Positions 37,382 through 59,186 are shown, numbered from the whole stretch's first letter. The stretch is DNA of 59,186 nt, filler included, from Sphacelaria rigidula (GCA_964200075.2; 10 parts of 10 records of this genome joined end to end with filler, not necessarily neighbours in it), one strand, 5' to 3'. Numbers and translations are program-made. The notes: generated by a model not told the origin, from the letters alone.

Positions 37382-38800
37382 TCATGGGTCATGGCGATCC
37401 GTTATGAAAGAACCAGGGTTTCTGGCATTGGGATTAGAGTGGTTGCTAGTCGGCCTGGTTTGCTGGTGATGACCATGCGGAGACTGAGAAGGGCGGAAAG
37501 CACTATCTCTATGGCGAGTACCTGAGACTGTGTTAGTGGTGTGGCGGCGGTCGCGATTCGAGCGAGAGTCGCTATGAGTTTGGTAAGGCTGGCGAGGGTG
37601 GCGAGAAGGTGGAGTGTACTCGCGCATGCGTTTTTGCCATCGGCGCCACGCCTGCCTGTTGCTCTGAAGTTCAGGGATCATGAGCGAAAAAATATTGATG
37701 CAAGGTTCAGGACAATCTTGCATACTGTGGCCAGTACCATTGCAGTTAATGGATGTGTTAGCATGGCGACGGAAAGCATCCCTGCGAGCCGAAGGCGATA
37801 GCAAGGGGGTCCACAAATATGGGTAATCGGTGATGAAAGCAGTCGTGGAAACGACATAAACGTCATCAAACGTATCTGCCGAAAAAGGCCAAGCACCGAA
37901 GCTTGCACGGAACGGGTCTCTTTTGTTACGAACAGGCATGAACGATCCACCAACAGAGTTTGGTGTCCAAGTATTATTGGACAAGGTCTGAGTGCGTCCA
38001 CGAGGCCCGGAGGTACTCGTTGAAGCGACACGCAAGGTCTGCGAAGACCCGGAAGAACACTGTGCGCCACGAATGGCAGGCGTTAAATTATGGTCCTGAT
38101 CTACAAATGCATTCCACATCGCGTCTACGGAGGCATAAGGCACTTCTTTGTGCGTCAAAGCGCCCGGAAACAAAGACGGCATCAGCGTCGGAAATTGCTG
38201 AGCGATACTATTGCGAACGTATGTTTGACACATAGCATCACTGGGGCCATTCTGTCGCCTGGTACCAGTCACACTCGACACCAAAAGCTTGAATTCGCGG
38301 AGGTAGTCAGCAAAGGGCACGTCTGTCGCGACGGCGAAGGAAGTGAGGCGCTTGATGGCGTCTGCCTGATCAGACTTATCGAGATACCCTATGAAACGCC
38401 TTTCCAAATTGCTGAATAATAATGGCGCTGGTTGCCCGCGGGCACGATCTTGGTCCGCGGCGGCGAAGAAGGAATCGAGAATCTGCGTCGAAGAGGCAAC
38501 CACGTCAGGGGAGCGACGGCTGATTGGGCGGTGCAAAGCCTTATGCAGCGGTGTTTGCCAGCCATCGATCCAGTCAGAGTCTTCGAAGCGCTGTTGACCA
38601 GTTGCATCGGCCAACTCAAGAATATTGCGCATCGTTCAACGCATAGAGGAAATGAGAGCGGACGTAAACTGACCAGAGCCCTCATTGTCTGCAGCAGGCA
38701 TGGTTTTGATATGCCATAATTTCTTAACATCCATCGCAAGTATTCGCGCTTGATCGCGGCGAAGCTTCTCTACGAGTATCAGCAGCGGCTTTGTCAGCGG
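37382..38800 (-). pseudogene. Gypsy gag (capsid-like region and zinc knuckle); open 37382-38632, extends upstream through a stop
   Basis: FADYLREFKLLVS (major-homology-region-like) and SINCNGTGHSMQDC (CCHC knuckle with the first C changed to S); lies directly upstream of the protease. Confidence 0.8.
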
Positions 38801-39053: not shown

Positions 39054-41350
39054 TCAATTGTTGTTGTTAGTGCGGTGGGTCCCGTGCCCACGGCGTGGTG
39101 CAGCACCTGAAGGGTCGTCGTCAGAGTCGTCTACGTCACGACGATGGCGAGGGGGGTGCGGGGTGATCCAAGCTCCATCATCATCGGGCGGCAGTGTGTT
39201 GCGGGCTGCCCGCATGGCGGCAAAGAGGGCGGCGACGGCGGTCTCATAATTAGAACGAGCGTCCCCGGCACCAATCGTGAGGTAAAACACGATCCGTTCG
39301 ATGGTGAGAGCACGGGGGTCGTTGTGCGGGAGCTGTCCACCTTGTTGGAGGAAGGGGACGATCACACCGTTGACGGGCAGGATGAGGGAGTTCCAAGCCT
39401 GCTCAGAGGCGCGAAGGACGTTGTTGCAGGTGTATTCTTCCGAAAGTTGGCGGAGCGTCCAGCCGAACCAAGCACGTTCGCTGCTCTGCAGGTGCAGCCC
39501 GGGCGTGGCGGCGGGGGGCGCCAAAGCCCGAGGGACCTGCAGTGGTGCAGGCGGGGGAAGCGGGAGCGAGGCCGCAGAAGCCGCGGCAGTAGCGCGTAAG
39601 CGCGAAGGCTGGCGGTCTGCTCGAGAGCCAGGAATGGCGGCGGCAGATGCAGGCTCTACAGGCGTGGTCCGGAGCAGAGGAAGCCGTAGTCGCAGTTTCG
39701 GTCGCGGTCTCGCATTGACGCAAACGATGTTCATCGCGGCGTACGGAATCCTGTACCTGACCGAGCGTAGCGAGGCGTTCATTGAGGGTACGTTGAGCCG
39801 CCCGCTGGCGGCTGGATGCCGAATCAACGACCTGGCGTTGGCGCACCAGTCGTTCCGCGAGGTCATCCGGAATAAGACGGGGAGCAGCGTTGTCCACCGG
39901 TTGTCGGGATGAAGGTGGCGCCAGGGCCGTGGCCGGTTCGAAAGCTTGATATTCAGCCAGAACTTGTTCCTAGTCTGCTCGGGCGCCACGAAGCCAGAGC
40001 CGGAGCGGAAGGCCCGATGGGCAATGCTCGACGCCTTACAGGGGGCGATCGTCCGTGTTGGGCTCGGGGGCAGGCGCCGGAGCCGAGCCCGCGGCAGTAG
40101 AATTTGGCGGCGAAGGGCCGATGTCGCCGAGGCGGCCGTGGCAGGGGTGCGGCCCTGATCCGCCGTGGTGAAATCCGTTGGAGCCGCCGCGCGGGGAGCG
40201 GGAGGCGTGACACGGGTGCTCTCGGCATCCGTATCGATGTCGGCTGCTGTGGAAGGGGCAGGGGCTACGATGGGTGCAGTAGTCGAAGGTGCAGGGGCAT
40301 TGGCCATAGTTGCAGCGGAGCGTAAGTAGCGACGAAGATCTGCAATTTGTTGTTCGACAGAACGCACAGTGGCAGCATCGGGATGAGGCGGAAGGGCACG
40401 GTGAGTGCTATGTCTGCTGCGCAAAGGTGCGTGAATATTAGCCAACGAAGGATCAACGGGCAGACGTGAGCTCACGTGTGTCTGATCGACAGATTTAGGC
40501 CGTGAGGATACCGTGGCTGAAGATAGTCCTGATAATAGAGCACGTACATCATGGGCATGGGTGGTGGTATCACCGTGGTGAACAAGGTCGTCATGATCCA
40601 AATCAAAATCAGAAGCAACATCTGAGGTTGAACGTACATCATCAGGGTCTGCAGCCAGTGGTGCAGAGGCTCGATGGTTTATATTACTGTCAAAGTGAAC
40701 ATGATCAGAAGACGTTGAATGCCTAATGGCTGTGTGGAACGCGGTTGCAAGCGCTTGTGAAAGGACAGTTGTCGCCGAACCGTCAGAAATGGCAGCCGGT
40801 GATGAACGAAGCAAGTGCTCAAGAGCCGTTACTAAAGGCAAGTGCTCTGCGGAAGGCGCTTCGGAGCGGTCAAGACGCGAGGAGGATGGTCGGCGCGAGG
40901 TGCGGTGAACAGAAGTGTCCTCACGATACATGTCTTGTCGGCGCTGGCGCTGGGAGGCGGCGTAACCCTCAACACCGCGAGCGCGGGATGAGTCAATAAC
41001 CGTGGTAGGAGCCTGAAACCGTTGGCGTTCCACAACAGTGGCGACGCGTGGCGACTCATCAGACATATGGGATCCCCGAGACTGAGCCTGTTGCACAACA
41101 GAACGAGCGCGTAGCGACTCGTCGACCATGTTGGAAGTCTTGGACAGTGTAGGTTCCGCGACAGAGCGAGCGCGGAGCTACTCGTCGATAATGCCGGGAG
41201 TCTTGGACAGTGCACAGTCCACGACAGAGCGAGCGCGTAGCGACTCGTCGATAATGTCGGGAGTCTTGAACGGTGTGAGGTTCGCAACAGAGCGAGCGCG
41301 GAGCGTCTCGTCGATAATGTTGGAAGTCTTGGGCAGATGGCGGTCGTGGT
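39054..41350 (-). pseudogene. Long low-complexity ORF upstream of gag (extra ORF or N-terminal gag extension)
   Basis: 691-aa ORF on the same strand as gag/pol; continues upstream past one TAG through 21-aa repeats; probable internal frameshifts. Confidence 0.55.
41098..41335. repeat. 63-bp tandem repeat, about 4 copies (21-aa IIDESLRARSV repeat on the minus strand)
   Basis: acagagcgagcgcg..gc..ctcgtcgataatg..gg.agtcttg at ~41098, 41161, 41224 and 41287. Confidence 0.9.
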
Positions 41351-46840: not shown

Positions 46841-49233
46841 GTTCAAGTCAGTCACGCAGTGCCTCGCTCGATATAGATATGCAATTCCAGTGAGTGACAT
46901 GGCCGTTGGGAGACTAACAAAGAGAAACCTATGACATTTTTACCGTGGGGTAAGTGAAAAGTGAGGGCTGGAGGGTCAGAACTCAAATCCCGACAATATT
47001 TTTTCTTGAAATAATCTGGTCCACGCTGTTACCAATACATTATGACATGAGCAGCAAAGGAACATTGATCACGAGTCAGTGCGGTTCGGGAGGGGGTGAT
47101 GCAATCTCTGACACAAAAAATGTTGGGCAGAATTATACAGGGAGAGACACGAGTTGATCCGTCAACACCACGGAGTCGTCCCGAGGAAGAGGAAACGCAA
47201 TTGAAATATTGCAAGGGCCGGACAAATCAATGTTTCGTCTGGAAATTACTTGGTTTCAGTGTAATTGATTCGAATCGTACGAATCAATCCCTAGGCTTTG
47301 TTTTCAGCAGTGCAACCCAGGTACACGCAGNNNNNNNNNNNNNNNNNNNNNNNNNNNNNNNNNNNNNNNNNNNNTTAATTAATTAANNNNNNNNNNNNNN
47401 NNNNNNNNNNNNNNNNNNNNNNNNNNNNNNCATTCGGCTCTTTTCCCGCTCATTCGCCGTTCACGGTCGCTACAACGACCACGCCCCTTTCTCCCCGAAA
47501 ACGGCTCCCGAGTCTCTCCGCATCGACAAAATAACTGGACTCATAACTCACAACGCGTCGGTCTTTTGTGATACCGGGGTTTATGAAACACCTTACTGTT
47601 CCGATCTCGGGGCTGGTTTCACGCGGTCAAGCTAGGCTCTTCCGTTACGAACGGGCGGTTGTCACGTCATCGATGGTGGGTTTAAGCAAGGGATATGCCT
47701 TGTAACTGAAAGCTGCACAGAAAAGCACGAGGACTACGGTAGAGTTTGGTATTTCGTTTGATTAGACCTTGTCGGATCGGAGTGCTACGTGGATTTGAAG
47801 ACAGGCACTGAGTTGCCGATTACCACGATGTGTCATAGTAGTAGGCTAGTTTACCGGAGTTGGGCACAAATGTTCATGGTCGACACATTTTACAAGCATC
47901 GCTACCCCTACCCCTACACCCAGAACCCTAACTCCAACCCATCGCGAACCGAAACCCTCGGACAAGGGCGGCACATAACATTCCCTTGGCAAAGTGTGGC
48001 CTTTGTAGACCCCAAATCAGCTCCTGTGGCGTCGGTTTCGACGAAAACTGCGCACACGAGGAGCACACGGGACCGTCAGCCGTACTTGAAATCCGATTCT
48101 CGTTGTGCATACTCTAATCAAGTAATATCAACGATGGACATTTGTAGACCAACGCTGGTTATCTCTCCTGGCACAACTCGGAATACATCGTCAGTTCGAA
48201 CGAGCTGAAGAAAAGTGAGCTTCTTAGGCGGCCCAACCGCTACTACATTATGGTGACAGCAGAGGAGGAGGGAAGAAGATGGGTGTCATGATGTTCGGGT
48301 TAATTGAGCAGTTTGAAGTGCTACCAGGGACGATTCACGCGGGCTCGGCGGGGTGTGCGTGCGTTCAGCGACTTACGCCCATTAGAGTTTTGTTCCTGTT
48401 TCTACAGTATATGCCTAACCACCAGTACTGTACCGTGCACCGTTGCATGGCTATCAATTGAGCAGTGACCAAACCCAACGTTTTCATCCTGGACTTGATC
48501 ACCCAGTTTTACATGCATCCGGTACTAACATATTCAACCGAAGCCCTTCTCTTCGGGGGAAAGGAAGTCATGTAGTGCAGTTTCTAACGCATCAAGAGCC
48601 GAACTATCTTCTGGTATGGTATTCGCTGTCCCTTCGCCTGTTCAGTGGAGGACGCGAAATTCAAAGCCACACACTCAAGCACCCCCCAACTGCTCAAGTG
48701 CCCGGCTAACCACCCTACCGAGTTCCGCAAAAACTACAGTACCCGGTTTCCTTTTATTTGATGAGCGTAATTATTCCTTGAAGGGTCGCAACCGCAAAAG
48801 AACCCATGCTTTCCGTCGCTTAACAGGTTGGAATGGAACCCCAAGTGACAGCGACTCAGATGGTGCGCCAAGAGCGTGACCTGGGTTCGACTGTCCGAGA
48901 ACTCATTTCAATAGCTCCTGGAGCTGCTGACCCTTTCGTGCGCTATACGCGTCACCCTAGGCGGGCTCCTCCAGATGATCATGTAGATAACCCTGATGTA
49001 GCAAGCGCACGTGAACTCCAAGGAGGAGATTGCGTGTGGGCTCAGACAGATGAAAACCTTAGAGTGGAACAGGCCGGCACTCCCTAGATTTTGAACAGAT
49101 AGTTACTGCTCCCTGACCACCCCTCGGGCACTGCGTTAGAACCCATTTCCGATGAAGCGTTGCCGTCTGTAGGGACAGAGGCTTCGCCGACTCGTGGACG
49201 TTCGCATCCTAGTCATAAAGAGGCACCTCGATC

Positions 49234-51717
49234 GTGTGTTCGTCACCAGGCAAACAACGTGTTACGCAAGACGACTCGTCTCCTAACTCGCCCACGTTGG
49301 CCCCTTTAATCAACGCCGGGTTGAACAGTACAGCTTTACCAACCCCGCGTCCTGACGAATCGTCTCCAAAACCTCCCATGTTGACCCTAACTAGTGATGT
49401 TAATGAGTTGATTGGCGTATCAAACTCAACACCGCGCCCCGATGGCTCGTCCCCTGTTCCGACCAAGCTGGATAATGTAATTGATCCCGCTTTGCACAAC
49501 GACGACTCGCCCCCTCCGTTGGCCAATAAGGGTGAAACACCACGCACAGACCAGTTGTCGGGTCCAACCACGACAACTGCCCTTCCCTGGCATCGCCCCT
49601 CCGTTGCAGTATATGAGATTCAACCCTCGACTAATGAGATAAATATTCCAGGCACAAACACTGACACTCCATGCACGCACCATCCCTCCGACAAAAAGCA
49701 TGCCCCACAGGATCATCAACGGGTGTATTTTAGCACCTTCGTTCAAAACGCAAAGCAGGATGTGTCAGATGTCTTACCCGAATTCGGGCGCGATCTTATC
49801 AGTGGTACTGCAACTATGGATGATGCTTCTTTTACGACCAAGATAGGTTTACATAATCGAACGCGTGCAAACTGTCATTCGATAGCTCTTGCACTACCAT
49901 ACTCTGGTTCACCTCAAACGTTCATTACAGCCAGCTACTGGCAACAGATCATCAACGCGGGTGCGGCGGACGAGCATTGTCCGTCCACCGTGTGCCCTCC
50001 TGTTTTTGGTGAGTTTGGTTCCTCCACATCTCTTACGGTCAATCAATCGGTGAGACTAAGTGTACAATTCTACCAGGATACTACTCCCACTGCTCGGTTG
50101 TCCGTATGGGCACTAATTGTGCCCGACGGTTCCATGTCTTTTGACGTTTTGCCGGGTCGAGATAGCTGGCTTTGTTTTTCCACACACACGTACACGACGG
50201 ACACACCCGTCCCGAACCGTCCAGTCACAGGCAAACTATCACTGGGTCACTTCGACACTGATTCGGGAGCTCATGCTTATCAGGATGACCCCACGAAAAC
50301 AGGTAATGCTTTCCGTCTGTACTATGCTGGTGAACCTGTAGTCTCGCTTTCTTGTGAACCCCAACTAATACAAGTGAACCTCGTGAGACGCAAGGGATCG
50401 CCCGCCCTCACAGGACATTATTTGGTCGAATTTCTCAAACCTGACCAAGCACAGGTTGGTCCGTTTGAACGGACGGAGGTCTTTGTCCACAAAGGTAGGC
50501 AGGCCATTTACCTCACGTCCCCTGCGTGTTTCGATATACTCAAGGGTCAGTTGTTGGGTTATGCTCAAGCGCCTCTCATACGAGCCGCCCCGTCAGATTT
50601 ATGCCCGCCTGCGAACAACAACTCGCCGACCGACCCCCCGAAATCCACGGGCCCCCCTCTGCTACACATGCGTGACCCCATGGTGGTGACAAATCCACCG
50701 GGTGCGCCTGAACCTCAACCCCCAACTGCATTACTGGATAGATTTTCCCCAGAACAACGCGCCAGTTTTCAAAAGCTGTGGGATGACATTCCCCCTCACT
50801 TACGGCATATTGTTTTTGATCTATCTGGCGATGGTTGGACACCCACTGTAATCGATAGATTGAGATCCATCTTGATTAGATACTTTGAACGGTTTTCTAC
50901 TGCACCCTTGGATTTAGGTCGATGTACCACGACACTGTGTAAGATCAAGATTCCGGATGGCACTCCGCCTATCGCTATGCGCCCGTACCGTACGAACCCC
51001 CTCTTAGCGGATAAGATCCAGGTCATTCTCGATGGTTACTTATCCGCCGGTGTGATTCGGCACTCGACGTCTCCGTGGGCCTCGCCTTTAGCAGTCTTCC
51101 GTAAGAAAAGTGGCAAAATCAGACTGACGGTCAATTATCAACGATTGAACGCTGTCACCAAAATCGCCCGGCTGCCACTTCCACGGATTGATGAAATCAT
51201 TGACTCTCTTGGCGGGGGTAAGGTATTTTCGAACTTTGACTTGCAGTCCGGCTACCACCAGCTCGTGATGGATCCAAATTCCGTTGAACTGACAGCGTTT
51301 TGTACGCCATCAGATTTGTACGAGTGGCTGGTTACACCACAAGGTGCCGCCGGAGCTCCAGGTGCGTTTCAACGTGTAATGTTCCGAGTAACTGATGGAT
51401 GGCACAAATGCCATATGTACCTTGATGATGCGGTGTGCCACGACTCCGCACCGGCTGAACACGTCAAACAGTTGGCATCATTCTTTAATCGGTTTAAACA
51501 ACACAACTTGAAACTCGCCCACTCCAAATCCCGCATTGGCGCCACGAAGAGTGAGTTCTTGGGTCATTGCATCACCCCCGAAGGTCGTAGCCCAAACCTC
51601 GACAAGGTCGCCGCCCTCTCCGATATGCCCATGCCACGGAACATTTCTCAACTGCGTTTCTTGTTGGGAGGTCTCAGGTACTACAGACAGTACTTGCCAG
51701 CCTTGCCCACACGCTAA
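49234..51717 (+). CDS. Ty3/Gypsy pol: protease (catalytic D appears mutated), linker domain, reverse transcriptase
   Basis: ALPYSGSPQTFI, RPYRTNP, STSPWASP, RLTVNYQRLN, FSNFDLQSGYHQ, TAFCTP, MYLDD, EFLGH. Confidence 0.95.
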   Translation: MCSSPGKQRVTQDDSSPNSPTLAPLINAGLNSTALPTPRPDESSPKPPMLTLTSDVNELIGVSNSTPRPDGSSPVPTKLDNVIDPALHNDDSPPPLANKGETPRTDQLSGPTTTTALPWHRPSVAVYEIQPSTNEINIPGTNTDTPCTHHPSDKKHAPQDHQRVYFSTFVQNAKQDVSDVLPEFGRDLISGTATMDDASFTTKIGLHNRTRANCHSIALALPYSGSPQTFITASYWQQIINAGAADEHCPSTVCPPVFGEFGSSTSLTVNQSVRLSVQFYQDTTPTARLSVWALIVPDGSMSFDVLPGRDSWLCFSTHTYTTDTPVPNRPVTGKLSLGHFDTDSGAHAYQDDPTKTGNAFRLYYAGEPVVSLSCEPQLIQVNLVRRKGSPALTGHYLVEFLKPDQAQVGPFERTEVFVHKGRQAIYLTSPACFDILKGQLLGYAQAPLIRAAPSDLCPPANNNSPTDPPKSTGPPLLHMRDPMVVTNPPGAPEPQPPTALLDRFSPEQRASFQKLWDDIPPHLRHIVFDLSGDGWTPTVIDRLRSILIRYFERFSTAPLDLGRCTTTLCKIKIPDGTPPIAMRPYRTNPLLADKIQVILDGYLSAGVIRHSTSPWASPLAVFRKKSGKIRLTVNYQRLNAVTKIARLPLPRIDEIIDSLGGGKVFSNFDLQSGYHQLVMDPNSVELTAFCTPSDLYEWLVTPQGAAGAPGAFQRVMFRVTDGWHKCHMYLDDAVCHDSAPAEHVKQLASFFNRFKQHNLKLAHSKSRIGATKSEFLGHCITPEGRSPNLDKVAALSDMPMPRNISQLRFLLGGLRYYRQYLPALPTR

Positions 51718-53258: not shown

Positions 53259-53426
53259 NNNNNNNNNNNNNNNNNNNNNNNNNNNNNNNNNNNNNNNNNN
53301 NNTTAATTAATTAANNNNNNNNNNNNNNNNNNNNNNNNNNNNNNNNNNNNNNNNNNNNCGCCGCTGAATTGCACCCGCTGGCTCCCATCGAAACACTATC
53401 GCCGTAACCAGCCGCACTCGACGCCT

Positions 53427-54220
53427 CTACCGCCGTTTCCGTGTCCACCGCCCCCCCGGCAGCTCGCCCATCACCACTGTCGCATCCCACTGCCGGGCCC
53501 CACCCCCCTCTGTGCGTCCAAGAGCGTCGGCGCGTCCCACCGCGTATGCCATAATCGCCGCCGGTGTCGCGGCCCCTGCTTCGCCCGGTAACACCGCCGC
53601 CGCCGTCGCCAGCGCCTCTTCTTCCGCCGCCGCCGCCACCACCGCTTCTTCCACCGCTGCCGCCACCGCCGCCAACACCACTGCCATTTCTTCCACCGGG
53701 AGCGCTGGCGTGGAGCCGCTTCGGGCGGGCGGTATTTCACTACCGTACGTCACTATCAAGGGTTCATAGTGATTTTCGACCAATGCTCGCTCGAATACAC
53801 CGCTAGCCAGATAGTTCCTCGCCTGTTTGCTGTTTTCCCGCAGCCAGCTCTGGAAGCCTGACCCTCGGGGCAGGGGCTTGGTCGATGTGGGACGGAACTT
53901 CGTCTGACCCTTTCGCATCTTTTCTGTCCGCCCTCGCTGCTCATGGGCCTTGATGATTCCCACGGCATCGGGGTCGTCGTGGGCAACTATTAATAGCTCG
54001 GTCCCGGCGTCGGTCCATTCGGTATGCACCTTGTCGACATGGTAGCTTTCCACTGCTGGATAACCGCCCTCAGTCGCGGCCTGAGGAGGTTCGCGGTGGA
54101 CCTCCGTCGCGTAGTCGACGGCATGACCCTGAGCTACGTAGAACGGGTCGAGCTGCTCGGCATCGGGACAGGCGGATCGTACCCACTGATTCGCGACGCT
54201 CTTGTTGGAATGCCCTAAAC
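53427..54220 (-). pseudogene. Academ-like transposon protein, exon 3: start of XPG/FEN(PIN)-like region, then Ala/Glu-rich low complexity (3' boundary uncertain)
   Basis: Acceptor ttgcctacag|; the phase-1 join gives PFSMLNSNGG-LGHSNKS; motifs HAVDY, LLIVAHDD...IKAHEQRGR, FQSWLRENSK. Confidence 0.6.
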
Positions 54221-54501
54221 CTGTAGGCAACGTGGGGGTGCGGTGATAAGAGGAAAGGGGTGGTGTGGCAGAAGATGACTGTGCGTGAGGGTAGAAACAA
54301 AATCGATCTGACGGCCGTTGGGAATGATCACTACAAATATGTGCGAAAGCATCCGGCGCTAGTGTACTGACGGTAAGAAAAATCCCCAGGGTTAGACACA
54401 GCCAAACTGCAAGTTGTCTACGGCCGAGTGCGATGTGAATGTGCTCGTTTCCCGGTATTGTGTCCACTGCAACTCTGGTCAGCAGTAGGTATTCCTCTCA
54501 C

Positions 54502-56711
54502 CTCCGTTGGAATTGAGCATGCTGAATGGGACGGACCCTCCGAGCTTGAGAAGTACCCTCTCCTTCTCCTCCTGAGAAATTTCGGGCGCCCCCACAATCC
54601 CTCTCAAAGCGGTCAGCAGCTCCTGCGTGTACATGGTGTTGTTCTTGGTGTTGGACTTCAACGTCGACTTCCGGCCTTGAGTCACCGTCGGTGTGGTTGT
54701 TGTGTTCTTTGGCGGGATGGTATATACCTTCTGCTTCGTTGCCCCCTTCTTGGTCTTGTCGCCCAACACATAACACGCGATGTTGTCCTCCAGCTTCTGC
54801 TGTGACACGTCGGAGCAAGACAAAATGGCCGCCGCCTGCGGACCGCTGACCACTCGCCCGTCCAGGGCATGCAGGACCTCTTCGCCGGCCGGCGTGAAGG
54901 CAGGAGTGTAGTGTAGCTTCTGATACGCCTTCGTCACGTGGGGCTGATGTTTGAGGAACAACTCTCTTTCACGGTTCCGCCCGGCACCCTCCCCAAAGAA
55001 CAAGTGTTCCTTCACTGCTGCTTCCGCCATATCCCGGCATTCTGCGATTGGAGCAAGTTTCTCCAGTGCAGTAGGCGTCTTCTTGTTCGTGACTTTTTTG
55101 AAGAACCTGTTCGCCATCTCCTGCCGCTCATCGAGTCCCACCCTTGCCCAGTATCTGTTGTCGCGCAACGATACCGAGAAGAGCTGTTCCACGAACTTCA
55201 GGTTCGATTCCGGCATTTGCGCCATGTGCATAAGGTATAGCACCACCAGCCACTGGTAACGGTCTTTACCTGTTACACAGAATATGAATGCCATGCGGCG
55301 AAGCCCTGCCAGCCGAAGGAGGAAGTTGCCTGTGCGCAGGCCCGTTCGGAATGCCATATACGCGGGGCAGTAGTGAAGGACGAAGCTCTCCCACACTCGG
55401 AAGCTCTTGTGGTTTTCCGCCCGGGCCCGAACCCAAGATCGAATGGCAGGAATGTCTTCCCTCCTCGCATGCACCTTCACCTTGTTAGCTATATCGTGAA
55501 ACTTTTCTGCCAGCTGCTCCACGGTTTTGTCGAAGGGTTCATGGTCGTCACTGCCACTGACGTCGGGCGCCGCCGCCGCCGCTGCTCCTGAGGTGGTGGT
55601 CGCCGCTGATGCCATGCTGGAGGCGGATCGTATTCGGCTGCCGGCGCCCGCCACTGGTGATGTGCCGAATGTGGGAGATGGCCCCATATCGGCGGCCACT
55701 GCTTCGCCGTCGGCGCGGCCGCCTACCCCGCCGCCGCCGCAGTCCGGCGCGGACGGTTGTCCTCTGTCGGTATTGAACGACAACAGCCCCGTGCCATATT
55801 CGCGGAAATCTATCAGTCCTGCGCTGGCGTGGATTACGCAGAACATCGGATCTCTCACGTCTCTGATTCCGTGCGTCGCCGCCGATGTGCAACCCTCGCC
55901 ACGACATTTGCGTTGTTCAGCCCCTGCAGTGCTTGGAGACTGCAGGCCCCGCGGACCGCTTGACTGTTGACCCGCGTCGACATGCTCTGTCACCCCCGCA
56001 CCGCCTCGTGTTGTTACCGTAGCGGAAGGTGCCTCCGTACGAACGCCGATTGCAGGCGCTGCCATACTGTTTATCTGCAGAGATGATGCTGCGGCGGGTC
56101 CCGCAGGGTGCAGTATTGTCTGGGCGTCCGGTGGCATGGGTGGCGTTGTCGCCGCACCAAGTGCTGGTGCTGATGCTTCCGCGGGATCCGATCCTGGTGC
56201 TGTGGCAGTCTCCGGCACCTCACCGGCATCACTCGCCGCGGCTCCGGCGTTGGTCACTTCCGTATCGCCGCCATGCTCGGTACATGGCCACTATTTTATC
56301 CCACGTTGCTTCGAAGAACACGCTGATGGTATGGTGTGCCACCCGATAGTTGGTAGCCTCCGATGCTTTTGTTCCGTCCACGCCAAGCGCCGCTGCGATG
56401 AACTCTATCCTTGCCCCCCCAAACCGGTTCATGATGACCTTCGCCATGTGGTACAGAAGGTGCCAGTCACCCACGTATATTCTGAGCCAGTGATAGTGGC
56501 CGGGGTTACTCCGAATCAGGTGATACATGAAGCGAAATGTCTCCTCATCACCGGCAACCATGCATGCCGCCGCCGCGCCCCTCTCGTCCACTCGGCGTAT
56601 ATCGGCAAGACGGTCGATGGCGGCCTTGGAGTCGGACCAACTCTTTGTGGTGCCCAGTTGCATGAAGAGGTACTTGAACACCTGCGGCTCCCTCTGCATC
56701 ATCGGTATCGC
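54502..56711 (-). pseudogene. Academ-like transposon protein, exon 2: DDE core with an inserted low-complexity and EsV-1-7 segment; one frameshift near 56280
   Basis: cccccatcag|AIPMM...AGDEETF...YVGDWHLLYH...[frameshift]...LRTGNFLLRL...GKDRYQ...GLDERQEMAN...PFSMLNSNG|gtgaga. Confidence 0.75.
55805..55909 (-). other. EsV-1-7-type cysteine-rich motif
   Basis: KCRGEGCTSAATHGIRDVRDPMFCVIHASAGLID fits C-x4-C...(F/H)G...FC-x2-H-A-x2-G(M/L)(V/I)D. Confidence 0.8.
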
Positions 56712-57238
56712 CTGATGGGGGAAGTCGAGGAAAAGAGCACACAAGCGCGGATGATGTAGGGTTTACACCCCGTTAGGCATTTGTTCACCCTCACACCTTC
56801 AATCCATGCCACTCTGCGAGGTGCGCACGTCGGAAATAGGATAAGCACTTGTGCATTCCCTGAAATGTTTCCACCGACTCTTCTTCTCCTAATCTCTTAT
56901 TCCTGAATTGTTTACGATGCAGAGTCAGTACCGGGTAGGAAACGCGGCAACGGCATCTGTAGGGCTTTCGAATCCGCACCTTGCCAAACTACTCGGTGCG
57001 AGCAAATACACTTGGATTACCCGTGCGCGGCGTCCGCGCGGAATTATGTCATCACCTAACCCTAACCCTGGCTCAAGTGTAAACAGCCTGATGGTGATGC
57101 GAGCTGAGCTCCAAGATCTTGATAGTATCATGCCAAACGCAACACTGCGCCCCACGCACAGTTGCGTGATCCCGCCGTCTTTCGACATTAATTTCCCGAC
57201 CAAGTACTGCGCACCCAAAAGTTGCCGGCTCTGTTCAC

Positions 57239-59173
57239 CTGTCTGAGTTCGATCTCCAAGCAAGTTTCGATGTCGCCACCTCCACCTGCGATCCTCGCCA
57301 CCGCGCAACGGAATGCTGCATCCTCGAATACGGAGAGGAAACGCCCCCATTGCTCACCGTCCCTGTGCCAGGAGGGTCCCGTCGTGATATCCACGGCCAA
57401 AAGATCACCTTGCCGACGGTGCGCGTGCATGAGCGATAAATGCCCAGGCAGAGTCTCCACGGCCACGCAGGTGGCCGCGATAGTACTTTTATGTGCCCCG
57501 ACCCCCGTGACACTTGTCGTCGGCCGAAAATCGCAGTTGTCCCAAGGAATCGCAGCAACCCGTAATGCGAGGGCCATGATATGTCTGTCCATCCTCCACT
57601 TCACGTGGAACTGTTCCCGCTTGTACCGCATCGACTCTGTCATGCAGAATCCATAGGCGGCGACGTAGTCGATGACAGCCACGGGTGTGCCGTGCGTTTT
57701 CAACACCTGCGCCAGATGGAAGTCGTGCATTGCTCGAAAACCTCGGCCTGAAACAGTTTTGACGAGGTTTTGCACGAGCATATACAGTCTCCCAATCCGT
57801 CTCTTCCTCTTCTTCATCTTATTGCGCAGCGCCTTTTCCCGCGGGGTCGATCCGTGTCTTCTTGCACTGGCGCGGAACATCGCCGATCCCCCTTGAGCTG
57901 CGCCCCCGTTTTCCTGTTGCGCCGTTCCACCACCAGACCCGCTTGCGGTGCCCATCAAACCCGCCTCGCCATCCCGCGCCACCGACATGTCGTCATCATC
58001 CGCCCCAGCAGTGCGAGGCGCGTGAAGAGAATCCCCTCGCCTACCGCTCCTTGCTTCATCCCCTGTCGGAAAAAGCAAGTCCGGATCATCACGCGACACT
58101 TGCAAATGGCACAGACTGCTCAGCAACGCCAACAGTGCCGGCGGCGTTTCATCCCTTAGAAATTGCTTCATGGATCTCATATTCCTCGATATGTCGGCGG
58201 CGTATTTCTGGTCCCTATCCCCCGATACGTTCCTCAGTTCGTGCGCACTTTCGATGTCCACCCTCACGATAGACCCAGCCGCTGTGACCACGGCCCGTTT
58301 ATCCTTCTTCGAACCGGCAGCTATCACCCGCTGGAGTGCGTGTTCATTAGGCTGACCAGTCTTGATCTCGGCAGTGAGGCGGGAGACAGAACGCTCCAAC
58401 TCTTGTACCCTCGTACGCATGTTGCGAACTTGAACGTCGGCCACAATGGCTACCTCGGGCGCCACCACCGACGGAACGAGATAGATGAACTTGCGTCGCC
58501 CATCGCATACAGCCGCATCAACCCCGCTCCTCTTCTCAAGCTTGGCGTCGACTGCGCCGTCCGCGACCACTGCATCGAAAATTCTCAGCGCTTGCTCCCT
58601 GGTGCGCATGTCTAGAACAGCCCGAGCGTTAACTGCGGTTCTGGCTTCGATCAGCCAGGATTGAACACCCTCCACACCCACTGAACGCCCCTCCTCAACG
58701 GTCGCAATCACTTTTTGGCGTACCTCTGCAACAAAGTCTGGCTCGGCAGGGGTAGGGGAGGGTGTTAAACCGACAGTCGCGGGTGTGCAGCTAACAGGAG
58801 GGGGGGGATTTGCCTTCCGCCTAGTACTCCTTATCCTGTGTCGATCGATGGAGCGCCACAAACAATCATCCCGGTTGCACATGCAGTCTGAACTCAGTTA
58901 ATAGTTTTTCACAAACGCAGCCGGGCGTACACTGCCATCATCCGTACACGCCTCCAGAAATTGCCGAGCCTCCGTGATTCGCGCAGCGCCAATATGACGC
59001 CAGTCACTGCCTTCCCCGGGCCCTGGTCGATGGCAGGCGAAGCACAGTCGCGATGCCGGGTTGTGTACCTGACCACAAGAAGAGCACGTGTTGCATTCCT
59101 CGTCGAAGACGGGGAACTGCATGCCACACACATCACGATTGCAAACCCGCTTACGTCCTTTCCCCCTCCTCAT
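57239..59173 (-). pseudogene. Academ-like transposon protein, exon 1: Cys-rich N-terminus, coiled coil, first catalytic motif; one in-frame TAA at 58898-58900
   Basis: ORFs 58898-59173 and 57188-58882 are in the same frame; FHLAQVLKTHG..VIDYVAAYGFCMT, IPWDNCDF; donor cag|gtgaac in phase 0. Confidence 0.72.
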
Positions 59174-59186
59174 TCCACTAACCGGG

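Follow-up and report, generated by a model that had tools for sequence, protein, structure and literature searches.

Academ is among the least studied superfamilies of cut-and-paste DNA transposons, and we know of no Academ transposase with a solved structure or demonstrated activity. The reference for the superfamily is said to be Kapitonov & Jurka 2010 (Repbase Reports) and that for its catalytic domain Yuan & Wessler 2011, while Academ is reportedly known from animals, one red alga and fungi (Kojima 2020). A published account distinguishes AcademX, which encodes a nuclease and makes target-site duplications (TSDs) of 3-4 bp, from AcademH, which encodes a helicase and makes TSDs of 9-10 bp (PMC10045372). 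Here we describe a contig at positions 53359-59186 of a 59,186-base window (the whole stretch of DNA that was analysed), which very probably holds the transposase gene of a multi-copy DNA transposon of the Academ superfamily (Pfam DUF6589 type) from a brown alga, in a copy that was inactivated recently. The window is made of ten pieces of about 5,829 bases, spaced every 5,929 bases and joined by spacers of the form N44 + TTAATTAATTAA + N44, and adjoining pieces are therefore not genomic neighbours. The piece at 53359-59186 is one complete contig of 5,828 bases, with no genomic context beyond it, and a database protein fragment (P0002) is 100% identical to its product.

The transposase core of the contig was compared with the RNase_H_Academ HMMER profile (465 states, 44 sequences), which Muszewska et al. 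2017 derived from the alignments of Yuan & Wessler and from Repbase entries (PMC5751038, Supplementary File 1). The comparison covered profile states 1-23, 127-279 and 407-457, and four ungapped blocks were matched as follows.

57521..57544, minus strand: block 1, WDNCDFRP (D-N-x-D-x-x-P), HMM states 2-9, profile consensus f-D-N-w-D-i-k-P; first catalytic Asp at 57541-57539
56535..56564, minus strand: block 2, CMVAGDEETF, HMM states 186-195, profile consensus v-v-l-t-g-D-q-p-l-y; second catalytic Asp at 56549-56547
56460..56489, minus strand: block 3, WLRIYVGDWH, HMM states 214-223 (H223 near-invariant), profile consensus W-l-v-P-f-l-G-f-f-H
55118..55150, minus strand: block 4, WARVGLDERQE (W-A-x-V-x-L-D-E-x-x-E), HMM states 444-454, profile consensus W-a-y-v-h-l-D-e-a-l-E; catalytic Glu at 55120-55118 and invariant Asp at 55132-55130 (D450 and E454 are invariant in the HMM)

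As a control, the four blocks were converted to log-odds matrices and run against the entire 59-kb window translated in six frames. Block 1 scored 17.2 bits and ranked first among 88,372 six-frame positions (next best 11.5), and block 4 scored 17.6 bits and ranked first among 79,901 (next best 14.3). Block 2 (11.3 bits) ranked 16th and block 3 (9.6 bits) 61st of 82,610 positions each, and the two taken as a pair ranked third of 541,027. The four blocks share one strand and one gene, follow the order of the profile and sum to 55.7 bits. Block 3 reads W-L-x-P-x-x-G-x-[FW]-H in the family (Y.WL.P.PGDWH). Two further blocks were placed by eye: the profile's g-s-G-l-e-e-l-a....g corresponds to G-A-G-I-E-x-V-A....G in the family, 17 residues past the His in both, and g-s-h-[a/Y]-r-r....a-A corresponds to G-S-x-Y-R-R....E-A, with 13 residues from Tyr to Ala in both. 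The interval from Asp to His was counted as 29 residues against 32 profile states. Judged by sequence comparison, the core is that of an Academ-superfamily DDE transposase, collinear with the published profile and carrying the D-N-x-D, G-D and L-D-E-x-x-E acidic blocks.

The core was also linked to the uncharacterised Pfam family DUF6589 (PF20231). A single longer protein of Sphacelaria rigidula (P0001), retrieved with the conserved part of ORF 54479-56290 as query and 81% identical over 97% of that part, scored 23.4 bits against DUF6589, and P0063 scored 27.7 bits (gathering cut-off 27). Eight of the nine members of alignment A3 match DUF6589 at E<=0.001 (best 4.7e-11), and a precomputed PF20231 annotation is present on five of nine hits of a homologue search. 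The stretch from GDEETF through the YRR..HH block aligns to profile positions ~80-230, and the predicted structures are alike, the ESM Atlas model of P0001 resembling DUF6589 clusters of Basidiomycota (TM 0.59-0.73) as well as clusters of Cnidaria (TM 0.70), Mucoromycota, Arthropoda and Chordata. The brown-algal proteins differ in that they score singly near or below the cut-off and have long N- and C-terminal extensions. Since the relatives score as DUF6589 members and the exons of the window do not when taken singly, this copy is tied to DUF6589 by homology. No statement of the identity of DUF6589 turned up in a literature search (DUF6589, PF20231), and the result would tie this family to a named transposase superfamily. 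The sequence-only reading had proposed an Academ-like transposon combining a DDE transposase with an XPG/FEN-like domain; the four blocks and the DUF6589 matches uphold the transposase, of the Academ/DUF6589 kind, but the XPG/FEN part found no profile match.

Several points weigh against this assignment. The comparison consisted of blocks picked by eye from 227 of the 465 profile states and was not a full hmmsearch, and blocks 2 and 3 are not discriminating by themselves. The ORFs of the window, scanned singly against Pfam, gave no match to DUF6589 or to a transposase family, DUF6589 matching only spliced or longer relatives, and we infer the equation of DUF6589 with Academ from the matching of both profiles to the same residues. 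The contig stops inside the element at both ends, short of any terminal inverted repeats (TIRs) and TSDs, which would be the direct signs of transposition. Neither an accessory helicase nor a confirmed nuclease was found, and the RNA status of two sequencing runs used below (X6 and X7) is a guess, as it is for all of X6-X9. The partial coverage of the profile, the choice of blocks by eye and the ranks of blocks 2 and 3 would also suit a DUF6589-type DDE element of a different or unnamed superfamily, Academ-like only around its catalytic residues, as would the restriction of the comparison to the Academ profile among those of that supplement. Such an element is improbable, since all six blocks are collinear, two of them in register by eye over 17 and 13 residues, and the two most specific blocks are the best matches in the six-frame translation of the 59 kb. 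The taxa of the look-alike clusters also fit the occurrence of Academ in fungi, given in the profile's source as most taxa, with the highest in Pucciniomycotina (PMC5751038).

The Academ core belongs to a gene read from five minus-strand ORFs (58898-59185, 57188-58897, 56229-56762, 54479-56290 and 53427-54497). These ORFs, together with all the motifs listed in the sequence-only reading, were found in the translations, and its two phase-compatible GT-AG introns (57238-56712 and 54501-54221) were read directly and recur as the same junctions in the gene models of relatives. The five ORFs and two introns form one three-exon gene of about 1,647 codons, with the following parts.

57239..59173, minus strand: exon 1, with a putative ATG at 59173-59171 (the start M of homologue P0056)
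56712..57238, minus strand: intron 1, GT-AG, phase 0, 527 nt, GTGAAC...CATCAG with a pyrimidine-rich tract and then CAG
54502..56711, minus strand: exon 2, across which P0001 is 79-83% identical
54221..54501, minus strand: intron 2, GT-AG, phase 1, 281 nt, GTGAGA...CTACAG, at a position conserved in the family
53430..54220, minus strand: exon 3, encoding the C-terminal domain and then an Ala/Glu-rich tail, followed by the stop codon TAG at 53427-53429

From the ATG at 59173 to the TAG the three exons hold 4,936 nt, which with five missing bases (see below) make 1,647 codons. The contig ends 13 nt upstream of the putative ATG with the frame still open. Exon 1 encodes an N-terminal Cys-rich (CxxC), zinc-ribbon-like region with a weak Zn_ribbon_RanBP match (Pfam, E 0.022), whose Cys pattern is kept in P0124, P0063 and P0027, and then a helical region and the first catalytic block. 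The blocks of exon 2 are the second Asp block, W-L-x-P-x-x-G-x-W-H, GAGIE, YRR..HH and the D/E block; the exon also encodes a long linker and a helical region that is conserved.

The gene model of P0001 has the junctions ELRQ|AIP(TMQ), corresponding to intron 1, and GGE..HSNKS, corresponding to intron 2, and a second Sphacelaria model (P0141, 94% identical) has SNGG|LGHSNKS at intron 2. The ORF fragments of five relatives that are ~40% identical (P0133-P0136 and P0138, alignment A1) end no more than ~10 residues past GG(E), before intron 2, and the position of intron 2 is therefore old in the family. Four public runs, from 'organism A' and an algae metagenome, were searched as contigs at >=90% identity; X1 and X3 are DNA-like, and X6 and X7 are those guessed to be RNA. 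In X6 and X7 the loose ends at 54222 and 54500 are the exact letters of the end of the other exon, so that these contigs carry the exon junction 54502|54220, and at intron 2 in X6 the spliced contig has a depth of 440 against 22 for the unspliced one. The summed depth inside intron 1 drops ~10-100-fold in X6/X7 and ~2-fold in X1/X3. No clean spliced contig or joint for intron 1 was found among the joints listed; those near it, 56708>57283 (X7) and 56703>57240 (X1 and X3), are marked 'between: not known'.

The X1 and X3 joint, seen in one contig of each of these DNA-like runs, connects 57240 to 56703 and skips 536 bases, a near-match to intron 1, and DNA copies without intron 1 may exist, the row bearing the mark just quoted. 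We also observed that P0124 (1,302 aa, from a Logan contig), which is 26-40% identical to the window by tblastn and 29% identical to P0001 in A1, is a single ORF uninterrupted at both intron positions; intron-less subfamilies therefore exist in the family beside the intron-bearing ones.

The number of copies decided between a transposable element and a host gene. Exon 1 alone matched 118 cluster representatives across brown algae at E<=0.001 (76 at <=1e-10 and 16 at <=1e-30), mostly short fragments of 26-100% identity, and Sphacelaria rigidula has four distinct proteins of the family, each on its own contig. The four runs gave 1,560, 913, 204 and 127 contig pieces, in bands of >=99%, 95-99% and 90-95% identity. 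These counts speak to copy number and not to dispersal in the genome. Nine family proteins had no tblastn match in any other piece of the 59-kb window, and searches of metagenome contigs with P0001 and A3 gave 77 and 599 pattern matches, none of them confirmed. With many copies at 90-100% identity and 118 protein clusters, the gene of the contig is a transposable element and not a host gene.

Three lesions were located in this copy.

58898..58900, minus strand: in-frame stop codon TAA interrupting exon 1, a nonsense codon specific to this copy
56279..56280, minus strand: 5-base deletion causing a frameshift
56409..56411, minus strand: Gly-to-Arg missense change in the G-[AS]-G-[IL]-E block, hitting its near-invariant Gly

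The TAA at 58898 was confirmed in the sequence, and both homologues that span the site (P0011 and P0056) have Gln there, within the conserved VKNY-Q-PSSD. The frameshift that had been placed at ~56280 proved to be the 5-base deletion: five extra bases between 56279 and 56280 are present in one contig of X1 (depth 434.7 of 1038) and one of X3 (106 of 282). By codon arithmetic these five bases make two codons together with base 56279 and bring ORF 56229-56762 into frame with ORF 54479-56290; the P0001 sequence at this site is VAMYYSE. The Gly of the third lesion is invariant in A3, at least 90% conserved in A1 and equivalent to G240 of the Academ HMM, and every contig that covers base 56411, in all four runs, has the other base. 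With Gln in the relatives in place of the stop, and the five bases retained in sibling contigs, the defects belong to this copy alone, which together with the multi-copy family supports the earlier view of a recently disabled element.

The same evidence bears on the alternative of a domesticated single-copy host gene in which the stop and the frameshift are assembly errors. The long near-intact frame, the conserved introns and the apparent transcription would suit such a gene, as would the lack of any row for 58898-58900 among the contig differences listed. It is nevertheless highly unlikely, given that contig pieces of 90-100% identity number in the hundreds to thousands in each of the four runs, and given 118 diverged clusters and several paralogues in Sphacelaria rigidula. 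Independent Logan contigs hold both the 5-base-longer and the shorter form, and there is an additional missense change at a near-invariant Gly; the copy number and the copy-specific defects contradict the earlier suggestion of a domesticated gene with assembly errors.

Judging from other DDE superfamilies, the protein of this transposon family, when intact, would bind the ends of the element via its N-terminal Cys-rich zinc-ribbon region, and its DDE centre of RNase H fold would cut and rejoin DNA in a cut-and-paste reaction. The fused C-terminal domain would be accessory to the reaction and may be a nuclease, as in AcademX. The present copy is incapable of these steps of transposition.

The C-terminal domain encoded by exon 3 has the motifs HAVD ... 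IVAHDDPD ... IK-x2-E-x2-GR ... WLREN and relatives (P0141-P0145) that are 53-94% identical. In a true AcademX element this part would be a nuclease of XPG/FEN type (PIN-like), joined to the transposase and responsible for the second-strand cut, an explanation that we consider doubtful. In its favour, A-V-D-Y-A lies ~47 residues before I-V-A-H-D and is followed by D-x8-K-x2-E and K-x6-R; the spacing of A-V-D-Y-A ... I-V-A-H-D ... K-x2-E-x2-G-R resembles that of the XPG N-domain in FEN1. The first Asp motif is kept as AYDWAT in the distant P0124. The account cited above likewise assigns a nuclease to the AcademX lineage and a helicase to AcademH (PMC10045372). Against this, no XPG_N or XPG_I match was obtained in Pfam for the ORF (E<=1), for P0001 (E<=10) or for six members of the domain (E<=10), and NCBIfam and PHROGs gave no match for the domain. 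The family profile searched against all PDB sequences returned nine weak rows, without FEN1, XPG or EXO1; the A1 and A2 profiles gave chance-level rows only, and phmmer of P0001 against PDB gave no match. The AlphaFold model of the domain (six sequences) had a pLDDT of 39 and was unusable. No I-domain acidic motifs are visible before the TAG at 53427-53429, and the X6/X7 contigs extend without a gap over 53429-54222, which gives no sign of a further exon downstream.

The weak Atlas leads pointed instead to other nuclease-like families, DUF559 and DUF2726. As candidates for the domain these ESM Atlas feature look-alikes (best 0.90; DUF559 and DUF2726 at 0.88-0.90, with low shared counts) were treated as chance level and rejected.

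An XPG/FEN-like domain is thus not supported, the sequences showing a motif-level resemblance to the XPG N-terminal half only, and the same holds for the AcademX architecture put forward by the sequence-only reading; the profile and structure comparisons returned DUF6589 and the Academ blocks but nothing for XPG/FEN. Pfam scans of the five ORFs gave no helicase domain, in a contig that covers the transposase gene only.

Compared with the Academ superfamily as a whole, the element has the six DDE blocks (D-N-x-D-x-x-P, G-D-x-x-x-[YF], W-L-x-P-x-x-G-x-[FW]-H, G-[AS]-G-[IL]-E, Y-R-R...E-A and W-A-x-V-x-L-D-E-x-x-E) in unchanged order and at similar intervals, and it likewise has a large transposase (>1,500 aa) that is multi-copy and intron-containing. 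It differs in its brown-algal (stramenopile) host, in having no recognisable XPG nuclease or helicase and, in this subfamily, in a linker with an EsV-1-7-type Cys motif. With AcademX it shares one long protein, an extra conserved domain C-terminal to the transposase and the motif-level likeness to an XPG N-domain, but here XPG is without profile or structural support and the I-domain motifs are absent. With AcademH it shares the superfamily of the transposase core, but its five ORFs are without a helicase domain, in a contig limited to the transposase gene. As neither the TSDs nor the accessory enzyme is established, we placed the element in the Academ superfamily and in neither AcademX nor AcademH.

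The linker of exon 2 and a breakpoint downstream of it mark further features of the contig.

55470..56279, minus strand: subfamily-specific linker of ~270 codons (approximate at its low end), separating the second Asp from the Glu
55808..55906, minus strand: EsV-1-7-type cysteine-rich motif (PF19114), single and in frame in the linker, residues 129-161 of the ORF
54827, no strand: recurrent breakpoint; abundant copies share 53359-54827 and then have other sequence

The linker is missing or short in the relatives aligned in A1 and is open for ~290 codons in DNA of 58% GC. A reading of the linker as a third intron was rejected as the main one, as a single frame stays open for ~290 codons in siblings that have the five extra bases; in other subfamilies that reading may hold. 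The EsV-1-7 motif scored 21.3 bits (E 2.5e-4), below the cut-off of 25 for membership in PF19114. Such a motif would fit a gene of an integrated giant virus (phaeovirus-like) in place of a cellular transposon, and integrated phaeoviruses are common in brown-algal genomes. Brown algae, however, also have EsV-1-7 repeats as a large cellular family, and the spliceosomal GT-AG introns at conserved positions and the very high, uneven copy number speak against a virus, as does a search of IMG/VR viral contigs with P0001 in which none of eight pattern matches was confirmed. We regard a viral origin as extremely unlikely.

Several contigs, among them those of X6 and X7, leave the sequence of the window right after the Tyr codon 56282-56280 and continue into sequence that is unrelated and contains TTAGGG-like repeats; as contigs diverge after 56280, other subfamilies have different linkers. 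In X1 the summed depth is 15-41 thousand over 53359-54918, 0.6-1.9 thousand over the linker (54919-56283) and 2-7 thousand over 56284-59186, and by depth the linker is carried by a minority of copies.

The loose-end consensus at 54827 is identical in all four runs, and in X1 the summed depth falls more than 10-fold slightly above this position, at the bin boundary 54918/54919. Summed depth over the 3' 1.5 kb exceeds that of the remainder ~5-40-fold, depending on which part is compared. Internal deletion probably produced the abundant copies limited to the 3' 1.5 kb, which would be non-autonomous derivatives, and a rarer subfamily would be the carrier of the long linker.

Beyond membership in the Academ superfamily we tentatively propose, as the bolder and less secure idea, a separate brown-algal (stramenopile) Academ lineage. 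It would have N-terminal zinc-ribbon repeats, an EsV-1-7 motif of host or virus type captured in an insertion loop, and, as its C-terminal domain, either a half-XPG nuclease that has diverged extremely far or a novel domain in place of XPG or the helicase. The lineage, with intron-bearing and intron-less subfamilies, would be transcribed and spliced, maybe still mobile, and would have spawned a far more abundant deletion derivative.

The named relatives (Sphacelaria rigidula, Ectocarpus sp., Nemacystus decipiens and Ascophyllum nodosum) are all Phaeophyceae, which bears out the brown-algal source assumed earlier. Diverged copies occur in more than one order of the brown algae. A literature search found no paper linking Academ to Ectocarpus or Phaeophyceae and none on Academ with XPG, and Academ does not occur in the main text of a preprint on brown-algal genomes (10.1101/2024.02.19.579948), the supplementary tables lying outside the search. 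This type of element seems to be undescribed in brown algae so far. A young, transcribed, high-copy brown-algal family would extend the host range of Academ to stramenopiles, and its near-intact copies could reveal the termini, the length of the TSD and the role of the C-terminal accessory domain. The family may also help to annotate a sizeable unclassified repeat in brown-algal genomes.

Other pieces of the window carry long ORFs of their own. Two on the minus strand of one piece, at 37382-38635 and 39054-41177 (417 and 707 codons), had no Pfam match at E<=1e-5. In the piece neighbouring the element contig, the plus strand at 49219-51717 carries an ORF of 832 codons with a reverse transcriptase domain (RVT_1, E 3.6e-24), the sole domain tested, and the ORF downstream of it reads FVIYTDHKSL, which looks like a retrotransposon sequence.

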